DNA from: Thermoproteota archaeon
Lineage (GTDB): Archaea; Asgardarchaeota; Jordiarchaeia; Jordiarchaeales; Freyrarchaeaceae
Direction: 5' to 3'
DNA length: 24,000 nucleotides
Assembly: GCA_029258835.1 (NCBI GenBank)
Contig: JAPDJY010000048.1
Coordinates: 33,195 to 57,194 of the forward strand
Positions 7,779-20,146 of this stretch are shown one piece after another. The notes under the pieces are model-generated. The model ran no database searches. It was given only the letters and a program-made list of their open reading frames with translations, and was not told the DNA's origin. How positions within the stretch are numbered: position 1 is the first letter of the stretch; each line of letters starts with the position of its first letter. A program made the position numbers and the translations under genes.

Positions 7779-7950
7779 TCTCTTCCCTCTTTCATGGTTG
7801 TTTTTCCTAGACGATCCTCATTTTCTCTTAACATAAAGTTTTCCTAACCTTTAGCTAGGTTTGGTGGAATATAACATCAGAGTAACACCAAATTATTTTT
7901 GGTCGTTGTCTCATGTTACCTTACCCTTTTTCTGAGAAGGTGAAGCTGCA

Positions 7951-9426
7951 TTGAGACTTCTTAACGATCACGTGTGCCCTATATGCGGGAATGAAGAGGT
8001 GAGTTATTACTGCGAGTCATGTAGCTCTCTTTTTTGTACTTCATGCGTTAAGGTTCTAAAGACAAACTACGCAGTGTGTGATACTTGTGGAACCATTTAC
8101 CATTTAGACCCTCCCTTGAATAAACCGTTTTTCTGCAAGTCGTGTAAGGGTACTGTCTTTAGGGTTGGTGTTAAGAGATCTCTTCTTTGTCCTCAATGCG
8201 GCTCAAATAATGTAGTGAGTGTGCTTAGAAAGAAAGAATTACAACTGAGTAGGGTTAAAGGCCTCGGAAGCGACTTCCTCGATGTTTCCCCGTTTATGAT
8301 GAATGTCTTAAATGCTCTCTCAAAGATTAAAGCTCGTCTTCTGAAGCTTAGAAGAAACGGTTTTCTTCATCACCCTGACCTTGAAGAAGCAATTATAAAC
8401 TCTTATGTCTCTTTTTCATCACTTAAACTTAAGGCTCTTTCTAGAGTAGAGCGAATAGTAAGTGGGTTAGCCTCCAGCATCATTAACCTCTTTAGGGAAT
8501 GGTCTCCTCTGAAAATTAAGGAGATAGACGCTTACCTTGACCAAGTTAGTGGTGCTGTAGAGGAGTATAAAGGATTCGTGAAAGATGAATGCCAAAGCAT
8601 CATAAGCAAAATACGTGAAGTAAGCGCAGTCATAGAATACCTGGAATTTCATCATAACTTCTTTGAACGTTTTAAGAGCATACTCGACTTAAAGGATCAT
8701 GAAAGGCCCGTTTGCGTTATTCCTGAAGTCAAGTATACTGGCAGCGATTTTCTCTCTTCAGACAAAGGTGAAGGCTTATTATTCTTTACAAGTGAACGAG
8801 CCATATTCATAAGGCGGGAAGGGCTTCTTAAGAAGATGTTTAAAAGGCAGTTTAGTTTCCCATTAAACGATGTTGAACTTTTAGTTAAACGTGGTCTGCG
8901 GCGTGCTTTTATCCTTAAAACGGGCAAGGGGAAGGTCTGCTTTACGTCTTCAAGGCATGTTATAGAAAAAATTGAATCTTACTTTGAACTGGCAAAAAAC
9001 TTTAAGTCTCTCTCTTTGGCAGATGATACATTAACAAAAAGGCTTGAATCCATGAGTGTAGGCTTAAATGATTTCAAAAGAAAAATAACGTCTCTAATGC
9101 ATTCGCTTTTAAACCCAAAGAAAGCTGAATCTGAACACTCTCAACAAGTTCCTTCCCATCTTAACATTCCCTTTCCCCCTTCGCTCCCTCCCCCCCGCCC
9201 TTCTTGCTCAGTAATTCCACCTTACAGAAACGAGAATGACCGTAGAAAAGAGCTTCTCCTTCTAGAGAAGGAGAGGTTCGCGGTGGAGCAGAACCTCAAA
9301 AAACTCGAAGAGTTATGGGATAAAGGAGAAATTTCACTTGAAGACTACTTTAAACTTTCAAGGAAATTCAAGGGTGAACTTTACGAGCTTAACGCCAAAA
9401 TTCAGGAATTGACGTGCCGCCTCTAG
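7951..9426 (+). CDS. Hypothetical multidomain protein: triple zinc ribbon, helical region, PH/GRAM-like domain, Pro-rich linker, SHOCT-like C-terminal helix
   Basis: The TTG start lies 7 nt after AAGGTGA (7937-7943). Six CxxC pairs occur at C9/12, C21/24, C29/32, C43/46, C62/65 and C80/83. Residues about 255-347 (GEGLLFFTSERAIFIRREG...RAFILKTGKGKVCFTS) read as a PH-like fold. A Pro-rich stretch IPFPPSLPPPRPSCSVIPPY follows. The tail is LKKLEELWDKGEISLEDYFKLSRKF. The domain calls rest on pattern recognition only. Confidence 0.8.
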   Translation: MRLLNDHVCPICGNEEVSYYCESCSSLFCTSCVKVLKTNYAVCDTCGTIYHLDPPLNKPFFCKSCKGTVFRVGVKRSLLCPQCGSNNVVSVLRKKELQLSRVKGLGSDFLDVSPFMMNVLNALSKIKARLLKLRRNGFLHHPDLEEAIINSYVSFSSLKLKALSRVERIVSGLASSIINLFREWSPLKIKEIDAYLDQVSGAVEEYKGFVKDECQSIISKIREVSAVIEYLEFHHNFFERFKSILDLKDHERPVCVIPEVKYTGSDFLSSDKGEGLLFFTSERAIFIRREGLLKKMFKRQFSFPLNDVELLVKRGLRRAFILKTGKGKVCFTSSRHVIEKIESYFELAKNFKSLSLADDTLTKRLESMSVGLNDFKRKITSLMHSLLNPKKAESEHSQQVPSHLNIPFPPSLPPPRPSCSVIPPYRNENDRRKELLLLEKERFAVEQNLKKLEELWDKGEISLEDYFKLSRKFKGELYELNAKIQELTCRL

Positions 9427-9440
9427 CATCCTCTTCCTAA

Positions 9441-10088
9441 TCATCCTTTCTCCTCGGCTTTCTCCTTTTTCTCTCCTTCTTCAAGCTCCTTCCTTAAGCT
9501 TTCTAGGTCTTCTAGAAGTACTTCCTTGTCGGGTATTGGCGGCTCCGTTGGGACTTCCGGCTCTTTAACCCCCTCGAGAGCTATTTCCGCTTCAAGTTTG
9601 TCCAACTCGGCGCTTACGTCTATGCCCTCCCCCATGCTTACCGGCGATGACAGTAACTCTCCGCTCCTATCTATTTCCTCCATCATCTGTTCGTGCCTTA
9701 TAGTCATCTCCATTATTTCATCCGAGCTGGCAAGCTTCATTGCGTCTTCCATGATCTTCCCAGCAGCAGCAACGCTTTCCTTAACCTGCACTATGTCATG
9801 GGCTTGCTCTATAGCGAAAAGCCGTGTTTCAAGGTTCTCTATAAACCCGGCATACCTGTTAAGGGCATTTAGATAGAAGTGGTATCGCCTCAAAGCGAGT
9901 TCAGCACCTTTTCTATTACCCGCTCTAAGATACATTTTCGCGGTTTCTCTAGCCCTTCTCGCCTGTTGCTCATACCTCTTTGACTTAGCGATTAAATTGT
10001 TTATGGTAGCCCTTATCTCACTAATTATTTGATCTCTGCTCTTAGGTCTCTTACCAAACAGCTTGTCTTTTAAGCTCATTCGAACCAT
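9441..10088 (-). CDS. ESCRT-III / Snf7 (CdvB-like) superfamily protein, paralogue A
   Basis: It shows MSLKDKLFGKRPK.., then a long helical hairpin with tip ..AKMYLRAGNRKGAELALRRY.., then IEQAHD..V..ESVAAAGKIMEDAMK, acidic helices (ELDKLEAEIALEG), and a Pro-rich and helical tail EPEVPTEPPIPDKEVLLEDLESLRKELEE. The likely true start is the second ATG (10079, giving MSLK..). Confidence 0.8.
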   Translation of the reverse strand: MVRMSLKDKLFGKRPKSRDQIISEIRATINNLIAKSKRYEQQARRARETAKMYLRAGNRKGAELALRRYHFYLNALNRYAGFIENLETRLFAIEQAHDIVQVKESVAAAGKIMEDAMKLASSDEIMEMTIRHEQMMEEIDRSGELLSSPVSMGEGIDVSAELDKLEAEIALEGVKEPEVPTEPPIPDKEVLLEDLESLRKELEEGEKKEKAEEKG

Positions 10089-10161: not shown

Positions 10162-13125
10162 TTATCCGCTTCCTAACATCCTCCTAAGCTCTTCTATCTT
10201 CTTGAACGCCTTCTTCCTAAGGAAGCTATACTCTTCCTCGGTCATCCTACCAAGCAAGTAATACTCGTGTAAACTTCGAAGATACTTCTGGATTCTTCCA
10301 ATTTTCGAAATAATTTCCTCATCGCTCATCCCTTCTCTTGCAAGCTCCCTTCCTAATCGTGTTTCTCCTTCGGCACTCGCCTTAACCTCCACTTTCCCTC
10401 TTTCAGCACTTTCATCAACACTAGGCTTCTCCCTTACCATCATGCTTACCGCTTTCATTTCTTTCTCCTCTTTTCCTTTCCTCCTTTCCACCTTGACTTT
10501 TGGTGGCGGAATCCACCCTCCTTCTCTACTAATCTCTTGGAGAATGTTTTCTATCAATTCTTTGGCCGTCATTGCTTCCCCTTTGCTTGGCGCTGTGACC
10601 TCAAACGCTATTACTGATGCGGTGTTGGTCCAAGCCAAGCTAAATCCTATTCTAACGTTTCCTTTCTGTCCCAGAAAAACTAGGGCATCCCCCTCTAAGC
10701 AAGTGAGCTCCCAGCCTTGAAGCGTGAGCTTCTCTCTTAACGTAGAAAGCATCTTCTCAGGGTCTACTCTGAGAGCCTTCTGAAAGTTTACCCCTTGAAT
10801 CTTGGAAGATGGGTAAAGGTACTCGTTAAACCTATACTTTATAAGCCTTGAAAGATAGTCTCCTGCCAAGTCATCCGAAACGTCTAATATCGGAATTCTC
10901 TTTTTAGCAACACCAACCCTCTCCTCACCACCAACCATCCCAACTCCACTTTCATCCATCTTAACTTCCACTTTCTCCCCTATTTTTTCTGGAATCAAAG
11001 ATGTAACTTCTTCGCTTCTCCCCTCCTCCAAGAGAGAGGCCGATCCTGGCCTGGCTAGTCCTGGTATAGCCTCCCTGCCAGCATGTTGGCTTTGCCTAGG
11101 CCTAATCTTAACCGCTAAAACCCGTCCTGTATCTATCGAAGCATCCGAGATCAAAGCCATACCTATAGGGATCCTACGTATAAAGTCTCTTGACATCTCT
11201 TGGGGGACCTTATTTGGCGATCTTCGCATGAACGCCTCTATATCCGCCTCAAATGTTAAATAATGTGTAATTATCATGTCAACTTGAGACAGGATTTGGT
11301 CGCTGGTTGCTGAGGGTTGCTGGGTGGCTAGAACTAAAGCGCACCCCGGCTTTCTTCCAAGCTTAGCATACTCTATTAACGGTCCAGAAGCAGCCGTCTC
11401 CCCCCTAGCAGGGGCAAGTATATGTGCCTCATCGACCATTAGCCAAGTGACAGGGATCTCTTCCTTAATAGCGCCCACGGAACCAAACTGTAATCCCTCC
11501 TCCCTCCTCGCCAGCTGCATCCTCTTCTCAAGTATCTTCCTTGCCAGTAACCCAACAACTAGCCCGCGCAGCCCCTCTGTTAAATAGCTTACATCAACTA
11601 CAGTAACCATATTTGGAACGGCAATTTGGTCTAATGGAGTTCCTTCCCGGGAAAATATCCCCCATTCCTTTGCAGATAAAAGTCTAGAAATGACGGCCCT
11701 CCTAGTGTCGGTTCTGAAGCCTCTGTCTTTAGAAAGAAGTTCTAGAGACGTTTCAACACATTTGATCATGTCGTCTATGGTGTACTCGTCTCTCTTCCCC
11801 TCCACCCTAATTTTCTCGTCTCCTTCAACTGCTTCATACCCTTCTCTTACCTGTATTAGGGCACGTTCAAGCAGTAATCCCATAGCGCCGAATCTCTCCA
11901 CTCCGAACGCATAGCACCAGTCATCTACTGTTAGGTCGGAAGGCTTTATAGAGAACGCCATATCCCTCGTAGCATCAGGCAGCTTATCGTAGACGCCTAA
12001 AGGCACGAGCACTCTGATGTTGGTAAACCCTCGAGGCTTAAGCCCCCATCTTCTAAGCTCTTCAACTTCCTTCTCCTCCCTGTTTGGATACTTCATACTC
12101 CAGAAAATCCCCACCGGATCTACTATTACAACTGCTAACCCTAAGCCTGACCTTGCAAGCTCCTCAGCTAAAACACCCATCGTGTAAGACTTACCTGACC
12201 CACGCTGGCCACATATGAATATAACGTGTGGTTTAAGGGCATCCACTAGAACAGGTTTGCCAAGGAAATTATTTTCTTCCGCCCGCTCACATATACATCC
12301 AATGTACATAAGCCCCTTAGCACCGAAGGTTTGCAACTTATCCCTACTTCTACCAAGCACAACCCCTTCCCCTACCGGATCCTCAAGAACCCTAAGCTTC
12401 GAGGAAACCTCCAATGGTTCCTTTACGATTCTTCCTCTCTCCTCCTCTCTAACTTTTAATTCTCCTAGAAATGCAGAGAAGCGGCGCCACATCCCCTCGT
12501 CATAGAAGTTTAATGACTCAAATATCATATCCCTAGCTTTTTCATCCTTTGGATACACGTCTACTTCAAAGCCACATAACTCCCAGCATGATACGGCTAC
12601 ATCGCTCTCACTTAATCCCTTTCTACCCAGCTCCTCAACGGCTCTCTCAAAGTACTCGCTTTTTCTGGTAGCTCCGTAAAGTATCAGCAATCCCTTCGCT
12701 TTTTCTTCTTGAGGAAGTTGCTCAACCATTTCTCTCATCTTAGAAAGGATCTCCTCTTTTCCACTCCTTCGAAATTCTTCAAGGAGAACTCGGAGGATTT
12801 GTAAGTCCACAGGTTTCGTGCGAAACGCGTACTCAACCATTTTACTTAAGGCATTTTTAACATCGTCTAAGCCCTGCCCATCAACTTGGAGAATGAGTCT
12901 GAACGCGTGGGCAAGGGATGAAAGGTCATTTTCAAGTTCTCTTCCCTCTAAAATATTCTTTGCAAGCTTCACCGCTCCCTTCCTTGCCCTTTCAAGGTAC
13001 TCATCCATTCCAGTAAGCCGGTAGGCGATCAACAACGCGTTAATGATGTCGCTACTAAGCTTCACGTCTTTAAGTGCTTCTAGGGAAACATATAGAAATT
13101 CGTAAATCGGTCTACCTCTTTCCAA
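10162..13125 (-). CDS. 987-aa HerA/FtsK-superfamily (DUF87-like) P-loop ATPase with a helical N-terminal extension and a C-terminal extra domain plus SHOCT-like tail
   Basis: Walker A is LKPHVIFICGQRGSGKSYT (GQRGSGKS at 12187-12210). Walker B is VTWLMVDEAHILAP (11422-11445). It is followed by KLGRKPGCALVLATQQPS and VDMIITHYLT, the layout I associate with HerA/COG0433. Residues 1-230 are helical repeats. Residues 745-870 form an unassigned alpha/beta region. A K/E-rich linker leads to the tail LRSLHEYYLLGRMTEEEYSFLRKKAFKKIEEL. Confidence 0.85.
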   Translation of the reverse strand: MERGRPIYEFLYVSLEALKDVKLSSDIINALLIAYRLTGMDEYLERARKGAVKLAKNILEGRELENDLSSLAHAFRLILQVDGQGLDDVKNALSKMVEYAFRTKPVDLQILRVLLEEFRRSGKEEILSKMREMVEQLPQEEKAKGLLILYGATRKSEYFERAVEELGRKGLSESDVAVSCWELCGFEVDVYPKDEKARDMIFESLNFYDEGMWRRFSAFLGELKVREEERGRIVKEPLEVSSKLRVLEDPVGEGVVLGRSRDKLQTFGAKGLMYIGCICERAEENNFLGKPVLVDALKPHVIFICGQRGSGKSYTMGVLAEELARSGLGLAVVIVDPVGIFWSMKYPNREEKEVEELRRWGLKPRGFTNIRVLVPLGVYDKLPDATRDMAFSIKPSDLTVDDWCYAFGVERFGAMGLLLERALIQVREGYEAVEGDEKIRVEGKRDEYTIDDMIKCVETSLELLSKDRGFRTDTRRAVISRLLSAKEWGIFSREGTPLDQIAVPNMVTVVDVSYLTEGLRGLVVGLLARKILEKRMQLARREEGLQFGSVGAIKEEIPVTWLMVDEAHILAPARGETAASGPLIEYAKLGRKPGCALVLATQQPSATSDQILSQVDMIITHYLTFEADIEAFMRRSPNKVPQEMSRDFIRRIPIGMALISDASIDTGRVLAVKIRPRQSQHAGREAIPGLARPGSASLLEEGRSEEVTSLIPEKIGEKVEVKMDESGVGMVGGEERVGVAKKRIPILDVSDDLAGDYLSRLIKYRFNEYLYPSSKIQGVNFQKALRVDPEKMLSTLREKLTLQGWELTCLEGDALVFLGQKGNVRIGFSLAWTNTASVIAFEVTAPSKGEAMTAKELIENILQEISREGGWIPPPKVKVERRKGKEEKEMKAVSMMVREKPSVDESAERGKVEVKASAEGETRLGRELAREGMSDEEIISKIGRIQKYLRSLHEYYLLGRMTEEEYSFLRKKAFKKIEELRRMLGSG

Positions 13126-13178: not shown

Positions 13179-13805
13179 TTAAAGCTCTTCCTTAAGCTTC
13201 TTTATATCCTTCTCAAGCTCTGCGATTTTACCTGCAGGAACAGAAGGAAGCTTCACACCCGTTTCAACACCTATCTCTTGATCTATCTCTGAAAGGGTTT
13301 CAGCTACCTCCTTTGAGGTCACATCGGTTGAAACAGTCATCCTCTCAAATCCAGCTTCCGTCACATCTTGAGCTATATCAAACTCCTGCATTGAAGCATC
13401 GATCTCATCTACAAGCTGCGAAATGTCCGGGAGATTAACCGTGCTTTTTAACCCTTCCAATGCTGCCCTAATACCAGAGAGAGTGCTTGCGACCTCGTAA
13501 ACGGACTGGCTCTGCCGTAGTTTAACAACCATCCCGTGAATTCTAAGCCTATAAGAATCAGTAGCTAAAGCCCATTTTTGATATCTCAGGTAATGCTCAG
13601 CATACATCTTCGCCGCCTCATTATTACCCATCATGCGGTAACGCTTCGCTTCCTCCCTGTTCTTCCTAGCCTCCCTTTCCAACTGTTTCTTATGGTATTC
13701 AAGTTTCCTCGTGAACACTTCAAGCTTGAAAATCACGTCTTTAAGTTTTGGGCCACCCTTAAGCCAGTTTATGAACTTCCTTAGCGACATAGAAACCACC
13801 AGCAT
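13179..13805 (-). CDS. ESCRT-III / Snf7 (CdvB-like) superfamily protein, paralogue B
   Basis: It shows MSLRKFINWLKGGPK.., then a hairpin with tip ..AKRYRMMGNNEAAKMYAEHY.. that I could align by eye to paralogue A. It continues with ..VASTLSGIRAALEGLK.., acidic helices, and the tail GVKLPSVPAGKIAELEKDIKKLKEEL. The likely true start is ATG 13790 (MSLR..). Confidence 0.75.
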   Translation of the reverse strand: MLVVSMSLRKFINWLKGGPKLKDVIFKLEVFTRKLEYHKKQLEREARKNREEAKRYRMMGNNEAAKMYAEHYLRYQKWALATDSYRLRIHGMVVKLRQSQSVYEVASTLSGIRAALEGLKSTVNLPDISQLVDEIDASMQEFDIAQDVTEAGFERMTVSTDVTSKEVAETLSEIDQEIGVETGVKLPSVPAGKIAELEKDIKKLKEEL

Positions 13806-18816: not shown

Positions 18817-20146
18817 TTGCTTTTCTTCGCAGATTTACACATCCACAGCAAGTATAGTAGAGCTACTAGTTCAAGCATGGACTTGCCGATCTTGTACTCA
18901 TTCGCCAAGGTAAAGGGGCTTAACCTACTCGGTACAGGAGACTTTTCTCATCCTAAATGGCTTAAAGAAGTTAAAGAGCAGCTGGAGCAGATAAACGATT
19001 CTGGCTTTTACGTATTAAAAGGAAAAGGAGACGTTTACTTCCTCTTAACGAACGAGGTCAGCACTAACTTCCAGTTCGAAAAGGAAACTAAAAAGATCCA
19101 CCATTTACTCATAGTTGAAAGCTTCGACGTGGTAGATCAGGTGAACGAGGCTATTAGCAAGTACGGGGATTTAAAGTCCGATGGAAGACCTGTGTTAAAC
19201 TGTACCCCCGCCGAACTCGTGGAAACCATTATGGAATTAGACCGTAACATACTGATCGTCCCAGCCCACATCTGGACGAGTTGGTTTGGCGCCCTTGGAG
19301 ACAAAGGTTTTAACAGCTTAGAGGAATGCTACGGGGATCAAGTGAAGCATATTCATGCCATTGAGACGGGGCTAAGCTCCGACCCGCCGATGAACTGGAG
19401 GCTGAGCAGACTTGACAAGTACGTCCTTATAAGCAACAGTGACGCCCATAGCCCTTGGTCTTGGAGGCTAGGCAGAGAAGCAAACGTTTTCCATCTTGAT
19501 ACCCTTTCATTCAGGGAACTCGTAAACGCAGTGAAGAGAAAAGATAGGCAGAAAATTCTTATGACTATTGAAGTCAGCCCGGAGTACGGAAACAATCCCC
19601 TTTAGAGGGGTAGCCGTAAAATACCACTATGACGGGCATAGAGGTGACCGACAAGGACATAACGGCATAGACGTGTGCATGCATCCTAGAGAAGCCATGA
19701 AGCACCATAACATTTGCCCTGTATGTGGGAAAAAGTTAACTATAGGAGTGCAGCATAGGGTAGAGGAACTGGCCGATAGGGAGGAGGGGTTTACCCCCAA
19801 AGATTTCATACCATTTAAGAGGCTGATCCCATTAGCTGAACTAATAGCCGTGGCAACCGGAACAGACAACCTCCACGCACGAGCGGTCAGGTTAGAGTAT
19901 GAACGCCTCATAAAGACGTTCGGGAACGAGTACAAGGTTCTTCTGGAAGCACCACAGCAAGAACTCGAAAAGGTAACACATCAGAGAATAGTGCAACTTA
20001 TACTTCTTAATAGAGATGGAAAAATAAAGATAAAACCCGGATTCGATGGTGTTTACGGAAAAATAATATTAGAAGACACCGTCAAGGACGAACCAGAAAA
20101 ACTTTCTTGGAAAACAGGTCAACAAAGTTTAGACAGTTATTTCTAA
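18817..20146 (+). pseudogene. endoQ: Endonuclease Q (PHP domain plus Zn ribbon) interrupted by a +1 frame change at 19591-19605; a pseudogene, a recoded gene or an assembly error
   Basis: The N-terminal part (18817-19605) has FADLHIHSKYSRA, VPAHIWTSWF and SNSDAHSP, then a TAG stop. The remainder (KYHYDGHR, ICPVCGKKLTIGVQHRVEELADR, PGFDGVYGKI) continues in the +1 frame to 20146. Confidence 0.75.

Follow-up and report, generated by a model that had tools for sequence, protein, structure and literature searches.

A Freyarchaeial/Jordarchaeial orthologue of the Asgard Znr_CC_PH_SB family as a candidate ESCRT-I-like adaptor beside ESCRT-III genes

[quoted passage not shown] The text of that paper covers 12 lineages and does not mention Freyarchaeia or Jordarchaeia, according to the literature two names for one Asgard class, and in the literature that we searched the combination of zinc module, coiled coil, PH domain and steadiness box (Zn-CC-PH-SB) was found in no other paper. 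Here, we analyze a 24-kb stretch of DNA from this class (contig JAPDJY010000048.1, positions 33,195 to 57,194), referred to below as the window, and in particular a gene on its + strand (7951–9426, TTG start) encoding a protein of 491 amino acids, which is the Freyarchaeia/Jordarchaeia (Frey/Jord) orthologue of this Asgard-specific, experimentally uncharacterised family. An original prediction, made from the DNA letters alone, had not recognised the architecture; it matches Znr_CC_PH_SB and has thus already been published as a computational prediction, so that the new element is the Frey/Jord member and not the architecture as such. The domain composition of the protein, the homology of each module, its family membership and its conserved gene neighbourhood are shown here, and we infer, with a probability of roughly 0.62, that it works as an ESCRT-I-like, membrane-targeting scaffold.

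Family membership and domain composition

The open reading frame (ORF) proposed by the original prediction is real, as judged by the same TTG start having been chosen in the gene calls of a 104-kb contig with 99% identity and by the N-terminus MRL(L/F), which is common to the orthologues of the protein (P0002, P0118 and the one in locus L003; 44–48% identity); a Shine-Dalgarno-like GGTGA is found at 7939–7943, 7 nt 5' of the start. A word-index search returned one distant homologue, and three relatives even when a 35-sequence profile was used, and the family surfaced only in an exhaustive HMMER scan over 1.84 billion cluster representatives, which gave 103 representatives at E ≤ 1e-3 and 75 at E ≤ 1e-10, most of them aligned end to end. 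Common to the family are six CxxC pairs at nearly the same positions, a helical region, a beta segment with the pattern G-x-G-(hydrophobic)3-T..R..F, a linker and a C-terminal motif; one member is labelled "PH domain-containing protein" at NCBI, and the named members are all Asgard (Jordarchaeales, Lokiarchaeota and Promethearchaeota).

The assignment to cog.011556 was made through a Promethearchaeota member, P0130. The supplementary table of PMC10936438 lists the Lokiarchaeum GC14_75 protein As_004-p_01543 under cog.011556, with L35Ae, MetE, a minus-strand "Vps20 family" ESCRT-III gene, 3-dehydroquinate synthase and GH57 as its neighbours. On the Promethearchaeota contig, the order is L35Ae, P0130, MetE, Snf7 (minus strand), 3-dehydroquinate synthase and GH57, and this synteny is what links P0130 to the Lokiarchaeum gene. 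Since P0130 is matched at E 2.8e-42 by a profile of the window protein plus an orthologue, and since its gene order is identical to that around As_004-p_01543, the window protein is a member of cog.011556. In agreement with the published description, we find in it three CxxC...CxxC units, helices, a PH domain and a C-terminal steadiness box, in an Asgard host. A separate observation concerns P0003 (343 aa), which is encoded on an ENA contig of 1.8 kb. Approximately residues 143–346 of the window protein recur in it as a fragment with 96% identity, placed between an N-terminus of unrelated sequence and a C-terminus that is TIR-like (PF10137); on a metagenomic contig as short as this, an assembly chimera is the most likely explanation, ahead of a genuine fusion.

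The PH domain occupies residues 258–349 (8722–8997, + strand) and consists of a seven-strand beta-sandwich with a C-terminal capping helix. It was modelled separately (model mc536787d938a, residues 245–400, 22-sequence alignment) with a mean predicted local distance difference test score (pLDDT) of 86.5, exceeding 93 across the sandwich and helix, and strands plus helix are also present at 262–349 in a full-length AlphaFold2 model based on a two-sequence alignment (m06aa415990d5, mean pLDDT 70). When the PH model was compared with the PDB by Foldseek, all 50 of the 50 best matches were PH domains, including Brag2, BBS5, Vav1, collybistin, MTMR2 GRAM-PH and Lam6; the Vps36 GLUE domain 2cay was matched at E 5.5e-4, as was, with a value in the same range, the EAP45 GLUE domain 2hth. 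At the level of sequence, Pfam recognised this segment as bPH_3 in 15 of 35 members, as GRAM in 2 and as Vps36 GLUE in 1, with P0130 exceeding the bPH_3 cut-off and one family member matching Vps36_ESCRT-II at 4.3e-5. A PH/GRAM/GLUE-type segment had been read from the sequence pattern by the original prediction, and the fold search of residues 250–350 and the comparison with bPH, GRAM and GLUE that it suggested thus give a PH fold. The domain is basic, its net charge being +8 in the window protein against a family mean of +7.1, and has conserved Lys or Arg at positions 272, 283, 294, 295, 318 and 319, a surface that would fit membrane binding. The short helices that follow (residues 351–396; 9001–9138, + strand) have pLDDT values of 65–78 in the models and are conserved in the family, with LAKNF...L(E/D)...D motifs. 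Searches with the whole model gave fold matches to DH-PH, BAR-PH and dynamin structures, which we rejected: with template modelling scores of about 0.2 and root mean square deviations of 20–29 Å, they reflect "helices plus PH" and no homology to guanine nucleotide exchange factors or BAR proteins.

The PH domain is joined to the C-terminus by a linker (residues 397–426; 9139–9228, + strand) that is predicted to be disordered, with pLDDT below 50 over residues 391–426. The proline-rich stretch that had been noticed at 9148–9225 corresponds to residues 400–425 and falls within it. In the family, the linker is rich in Pro, Asn and Gln, varies in composition, and has a length of anything between about 20 and over 250 residues (alignment A4). 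It is followed by a helical hairpin at residues 428–490 (9232–9420, + strand), which AlphaFold2 predicts with confidence as two helices, 428–457 and 463–490, so that the helical nature of the C-terminus was anticipated correctly while the single helix originally proposed gives way to a pair. By BLASTP, the hairpin is 32% identical over 59 aa (E 3e-10) to the C-terminus of a Helarchaeota UEV/Vps23-like protein (L007:4588–5532), hhalign aligns the two with 97% probability, and a hidden Markov model (HMM) of the family's SB region, applied to every ORF in the retrieved loci, finds the same C-terminus at 9e-15. This protein contains UQ_con/UEV, Vps23_core and Mod_r by Pfam, and is therefore an Asgard Vps23 homologue. 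The family profile also matches the yeast Vps23 core (2f66/2p22/2caz, E 4.5e-5) and, more weakly, TSG101 (0.0095) and Vps37B (0.049) in the PDB, and when 26 hairpins were scanned alone against Pfam, 16 matched Vps23_core, 5 CdvA and 4 SHOCT. The C-terminal tail, with the family motif L..LE...F.....L..L...F..G.IS..dYfk.Y..Lq.ELY, is thus by homology a steadiness box, the module of the ESCRT-I headpiece. For both the PH domain and the steadiness box, the fold and profile evidence given here is independent of the published description.

The name "SHOCT-tailed" given to the protein by the original prediction is not borne out, since neither the protein nor its hairpin has a SHOCT match at E ≤ 1, and Vps23_core is dominant in the family. 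The likeness to SHOCT (PF09851) is that of a common short C-terminal helix-Gly-helix motif, "G(E/x)IS.E(D/E)(Y/F)"; the four SHOCT matches are weak (best E 6.7e-4), and those to Vps23_core are stronger and four times as numerous. As a separate observation, the gene beside the family member P0120 (L009 11889–13673, + strand) encodes a ribophorin-I-like protein (Pfam Ribophorin_I, E 1.8e-8), for residues 468–522 of which the steadiness-box HMM gives a weak match (domain E 0.0015), and PDB 8whn, "Ribophorin 1 superfamily protein", is among the matches of the family profile (E 0.004); it would be odd for a homologue of an oligosaccharyltransferase subunit to carry an SB-like hairpin.

At the other end of the protein, residues 9–83 (7975–8199, + strand) form a zinc module that is predicted to bind three zinc ions. 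The twelve Cys of its six CxxC pairs (9/12, 21/24, 29/32, 43/46, 62/65 and 80/83), described as such in the original prediction, are all invariant across the 35-sequence alignment; as the mean column identity of this alignment is 20%, their conservation is far beyond chance. Between the zinc module and the PH domain lies the helical, or "coiled-coil", region (residues 87–244; 8209–8682, + strand), with long helices at 113–135, 142–182 and 188–244 that AlphaFold2 predicts at pLDDT values mostly of 82–95. It has no Pfam family match, and it corresponds to the helical region of about 150 aa that had been proposed, which the model places at 87–244 with pLDDT mostly above 80.

Linkage to ESCRT-III genes

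The gene lies tail-to-tail with a block of ESCRT-III and ATPase genes, as the original prediction had stated: it runs to 9426, stop codon included, and the convergent Snf7 gene to 9441, with a gap of 14 bp between the two. This neighbour (Snf7_A; 9441–10088, – strand, 215 aa, Pfam Snf7 E 1e-18) is identical to MDO8062763.1 of Ca. Freyrarchaeum guaymaensis. It is the only Snf7 of the window that matches the Snf7 near P0130 in L012, which in turn occupies the position of the Lokiarchaeum GC14_75 "Vps20 family" gene. The second ESCRT-III gene (Snf7_B; 13179–13805, – strand, 208 aa, Pfam Snf7 E 1.2e-19) encodes a protein 46–56% identical to the Snf7 beside Vps4 in L004, L005 and L007, and its Lokiarchaeum counterpart carries the annotation "Vps24 family". 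Judged by best matches and synteny, Snf7_A is thus assigned as Vps20-type and Snf7_B as Vps24-type. Both proteins are identical to Ca. Freyrarchaeum guaymaensis/Freyarchaeota entries, and the window comes from this archaeon. The 90% cluster of Snf7_A also holds a 169-aa fragment (P0254, HDD69286.1) labelled "Candidatus Korarchaeota archaeon", probably from a mis-binned or mislabelled Frey/Jordarchaeial contig.

A locus search on contigs with a four-sequence alignment identified orthologous loci in Jordarchaeum, Jordarchaeales and Freyarchaeota. In 11 Frey/Jord loci (including L001, L003, L010 and L013–L018), the Zn-CC-PH-SB gene is kept beside Snf7, in the order proteasome alpha (–), Zn-CC-PH-SB (+), Snf7_A (–), ATPase (–), Snf7_B (–). 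The association extends beyond this class. In L011, which represents a third lineage and carries a 23%-identical member with unrelated flanks, the family gene lies tail-to-tail with two Snf7 genes and there is no ATPase, and in the Promethearchaeota loci L012 and L019 as well as in Lokiarchaeum a Vps20-type Snf7 is found about 1.5 kb from the family gene. In Heimdall AB_125, a gene of cog.006820, a related group ("triple Zn ribbon fused to PH"), is located two genes from Vps24-Vps20-Vps4-Vps25. Since the gene thus stands beside Vps20-type ESCRT-III in Frey/Jordarchaeia, in Lokiarchaeia and in a third lineage, an ESCRT role is supported, and the recurrent link to the Vps20-type, that is, nucleating, ESCRT-III suggests a position for the Zn-CC-PH-SB protein in the pathway. 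Co-conservation with the neighbouring genes, on which the original prediction had staked its proposal, holds in independent contexts for the adjacency to Snf7, and is not supported for the ATPase, whose family and that of the Zn-CC-PH-SB protein occur apart.

The ATPase is a HerA/FtsK-type (DUF87) P-loop protein of 987 aa encoded between the two ESCRT-III genes (10162–13125, – strand; Pfam DUF87 E 2.4e-13, with weak HerA matches in NCBIfam). Homologues of about 870–1030 aa are encoded in L004 and L005 (8001–10625), L007 (8001–10694) and L021 (8001–10787), and the Snf7-ATPase-Snf7 triad is seen in Frey/Jordarchaeia and, among Helarchaeota, in two unrelated contexts, with L007 and L021 having the triad and no family member within 8 kb. 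The order in the Hod/Promethearchaeota loci is Vps25-Vps4-Snf7-ATPase, with Vps28, Vps22, ubiquitin, E1 and E2 nearby; a Bathyarchaeota homologue of the ATPase (L008) has no Snf7 nearby. In the literature that we searched, no paper links DUF87, HerA or FtsK to Asgard ESCRT, and the conserved position of this ATPase between ESCRT-III genes may be a more original lead than the 491-aa protein itself. Two further genes accompany the ATPase, neither with a Pfam match: a 355-aa gene between Snf7_A and the ATPase in one Frey/Jord subgroup (L010 4978–6045, – strand), to which the loci with gaps between their Snf7_A and ATPase matches (L015–L018) also belong, and an all-helical 344-aa gene just after the ATPase in Hod/Promethearchaeota loci (L004 10633–11667).

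The remaining genes of the window are housekeeping genes (Cdc48, TFIIB, SUI1, proteasome alpha, S26e, ProRS, S8e, SRP19, Gar1 and Trm1), and no tRNA or Rfam element was found in it. Two overlapping ORFs 3' of ProRS (18817–19605, + strand, 262 aa, and 19568–20146, + strand, 192 aa) have no Pfam match at E ≤ 1e-3.

Proposed role and alternative explanations

In the role that we consider probable, the basic PH domain would dock on the anionic cytoplasmic membrane, and might bind ubiquitin as well, as GLUE-type PH domains do, while the three-zinc module would offer a further surface for binding proteins or ubiquitin, and the helical region would serve as a stalk or oligomerisation element. The SB hairpin, on its flexible linker, would pack with its counterparts in the Asgard Vps23-like (UEV) and Vps28-like proteins into an ESCRT-I-type headpiece, which would hand over, directly or via ESCRT-II/Vps25, to the Vps20-type ESCRT-III encoded next door. 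Several points weigh against this proposal. Synteny covers the entire Frey/Jord region, from SUI1 and proteasome alpha through to S26e, and adjacency within this class is therefore weak evidence on its own. For one member, P0120 in L009, there is no Snf7 within 10 kb. The hairpin of the window protein, when scanned alone, has no Pfam Vps23_core match at E ≤ 1, and its assignment as a steadiness box derives from pairwise and profile homology to the Asgard Vps23-like protein. Finally, no Vps23, Vps28, Vps25 or Vps4 gene was found in the window by Pfam, and the presence of these genes in the genome is known from a literature statement alone.

The original prediction had proposed an adaptor with the logic of CdvA, in which a targeting domain and oligomerising helices are combined with a C-terminal peptide that binds ESCRT-III. 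An ESCRT-linked multidomain adaptor is what we find; the C-terminus is, by homology, a Vps23 core/SB hairpin instead of such a peptide, and homology to the steadiness box suggests that the protein joins other SB proteins in an ESCRT-I-like headpiece rather than binding ESCRT-III directly. One could nonetheless imagine a direct recruiter in the manner of CdvA, where the PH-bound protein nucleates the adjoining Vps20-type ESCRT-III and bypasses ESCRT-I and ESCRT-II. This would agree with the observation that in three lineages it is the Vps20-type Snf7 to which the gene is adjacent, with the published similarity of the SB hairpin to CdvA, and with the finding that the window contains no ESCRT-I or ESCRT-II gene. 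The window hairpin also matches Pfam CdvA, weakly, at E 0.018, where other coiled-coil families match as well, and residues 420–487 match NF041007 at E 0.037. The hairpin is, however, far closer to the Vps23 steadiness box than to CdvA, and we rejected membership in CdvA itself: the score with NF041007 is 13.4 bits, where the cut-off is 350, PF18822 gives E 0.95 with the full protein and 0.018 with the hairpin, both below its 30-bit cut-off, and no PRC-barrel match was detected by Pfam, the N-terminus being the Cys-rich zinc module. Furthermore, the Snf7 domain takes up almost all of both neighbouring Snf7 proteins, which by Pfam lack the winged-helix extension that would receive an E3B peptide, and in Lokiarchaeum the family coexists with complete sets of ESCRT-I and ESCRT-II. 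A CdvA-like recruiter is therefore unlikely, though worth bearing in mind.

Quite improbable is a role in the ubiquitin pathway, with the zinc module acting as an E3-like or ubiquitin-binding element and the protein as a cargo receptor close to ESCRT-0 or to the NZF/GLUE part of Vps36. The spacing of Cys pairs 1–4 (C-x2-C-x8-C-x2-C-x4-C-x2-C-x10-C-x2-C) is B-box1/RING-like, while pairs 5 and 6, with an invariant P81, have the look of a zinc ribbon. By Pfam, zf-B_box is matched in 13 of 35 members, an ANCHR-like B-box in 7 and DZR in 4, and the best sequence matches of the zinc region of the family profile in the PDB are RING, PHD and B-box structures such as RNF4 and TRIM21 (E 2e-4 to 0.02). 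The resemblance of the PH domain to the ubiquitin-binding GLUE domains and the presence of ubiquitin, E1, E2 and RING genes in Asgard ESCRT loci could be read in the same way. On the other hand, the zinc-finger matches are all at or below the curated cut-offs and driven largely by Cys spacing (the window protein reaches 24.0 bits, E 4.4e-5, against a zf-B_box cut-off of 24.1), the model of the region is of low confidence (pLDDT 38–54), with three sequential ribbons and a B-box/RING-like cross-brace plus ribbon as candidate topologies, and there are no ubiquitin-system genes at the Frey/Jord locus or elsewhere in the window by Pfam. An ESCRT-0-like function was also considered on account of the PSLP in the window linker, and rejected: the late-domain motif P[ST]xP is not enriched, with 15 occurrences observed in 57 members and 14.5 expected from shuffles.

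The ATPase carries a C-terminal helical tail (10162–10320, – strand; motif IQ.YL.SLHEYY.LG.MTEEEY.FL.RK...EEL) that is present only in Frey/Jordarchaeia and resembles the "G.IS.E(D/E)Y" turn of the steadiness box and SHOCT. That the 491-aa protein is a lineage-specific partner or regulator of the ATPase, its hairpin pairing with this tail, is very unlikely: both genes share one locus in all Frey/Jord genomes, tail and hairpin have a motif in common (L..L.E.Y..G.(I/M)(S/T)xEEY; hhalign E 1e-3 over 24 columns) and weakly match the same region of the Pfam GvpG profile (8 of 8 tails, 11 of 26 hairpins), yet the hhalign probability is 21%, the SB HMM gives E 0.11–10 on ATPase tails, the family gene stands by Snf7 without the ATPase in L011, L012 and L019, and L004, L005, L007 and L021 have the ATPase without a Zn-PH-SB gene within 8 kb. 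A CdvA-like nucleator, a ubiquitin-system role and a partnership with the ATPase are not mutually exclusive. One could also speculate, at long odds, that in Frey/Jordarchaeia the Zn-CC-PH-SB protein, the Vps20-type ESCRT-III, the ATPase and the Vps24-type ESCRT-III form one compact machine, which the PH-SB protein would place on the membrane, and in which the ATPase would be an Asgard-wide ESCRT-III partner tethered through its lineage-specific C-terminal hairpin to the steadiness box. If so, the ATPase might for example be a DNA translocase that couples chromosome clearance to ESCRT scission, or a second remodelling motor beside Vps4.

Returning to the ESCRT-I-like scaffold, modules of this kind in Asgard archaea bear on the origin of the eukaryotic membrane-remodelling machinery, and the extension of Znr_CC_PH_SB to Freyarchaeia/Jordarchaeia adds to the case for the family being ancestral among Asgard archaea. 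The Zn-CC-PH-SB protein and the Vps20-type ESCRT-III constitute a concrete, testable protein pair, and the compact, thermophile-derived Frey/Jord version with its short linker may suit biochemistry and structural work.

Comparison with described systems

The protein resembles the ESCRT-I subunits Vps23/TSG101 and Vps37 in its C-terminal SB hairpin, helical stalk and flexible proline-rich region. Unlike Vps23/TSG101, it has no UEV domain (no UEV/UQ_con match by Pfam) and carries the zinc module and PH domain in its place; its stalk is on the N-terminal side of the PH domain, and between PH domain and steadiness box comes the disordered linker. With Vps36/EAP45 of ESCRT-II it shares a PH fold and zinc fingers, the GLUE domains 2cay and 2hth being matched at E about 6e-4, whereas it lacks the winged-helix EAP30/Vps36 core (no EAP30 or winged-helix match by Pfam), its zinc fingers are N-terminal instead of inserted in the PH domain, and its PH sequence is closer to bPH_3/GRAM. 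The comparison with CdvA of Thermoproteota cell division gives a similar overall plan of targeting domain, coiled coil and C-terminal helical module, with the weak hairpin matches described above, and arCOG03733 (Zn ribbon-CC-CdvA-like, Thermoproteales) likewise begins with a zinc ribbon; the window protein differs in having neither PRC barrel nor E3B peptide, and the ESCRT-III proteins encoded next to it show no winged-helix domain by Pfam. The closest described system is Znr_CC_PH_SB itself, with the same order of modules (three CxxC zinc units, helical/coiled-coil region, PH domain, steadiness box), a link to ESCRT-III and Asgard hosts. Within this family, the window protein stands apart by its linker of about 30 aa, as compared with up to 250 or more in Lokiarchaeia, and by the position of its gene, which is directly convergent with a compact block of Vps20-type ESCRT-III, HerA-like ATPase and Vps24-type ESCRT-III.

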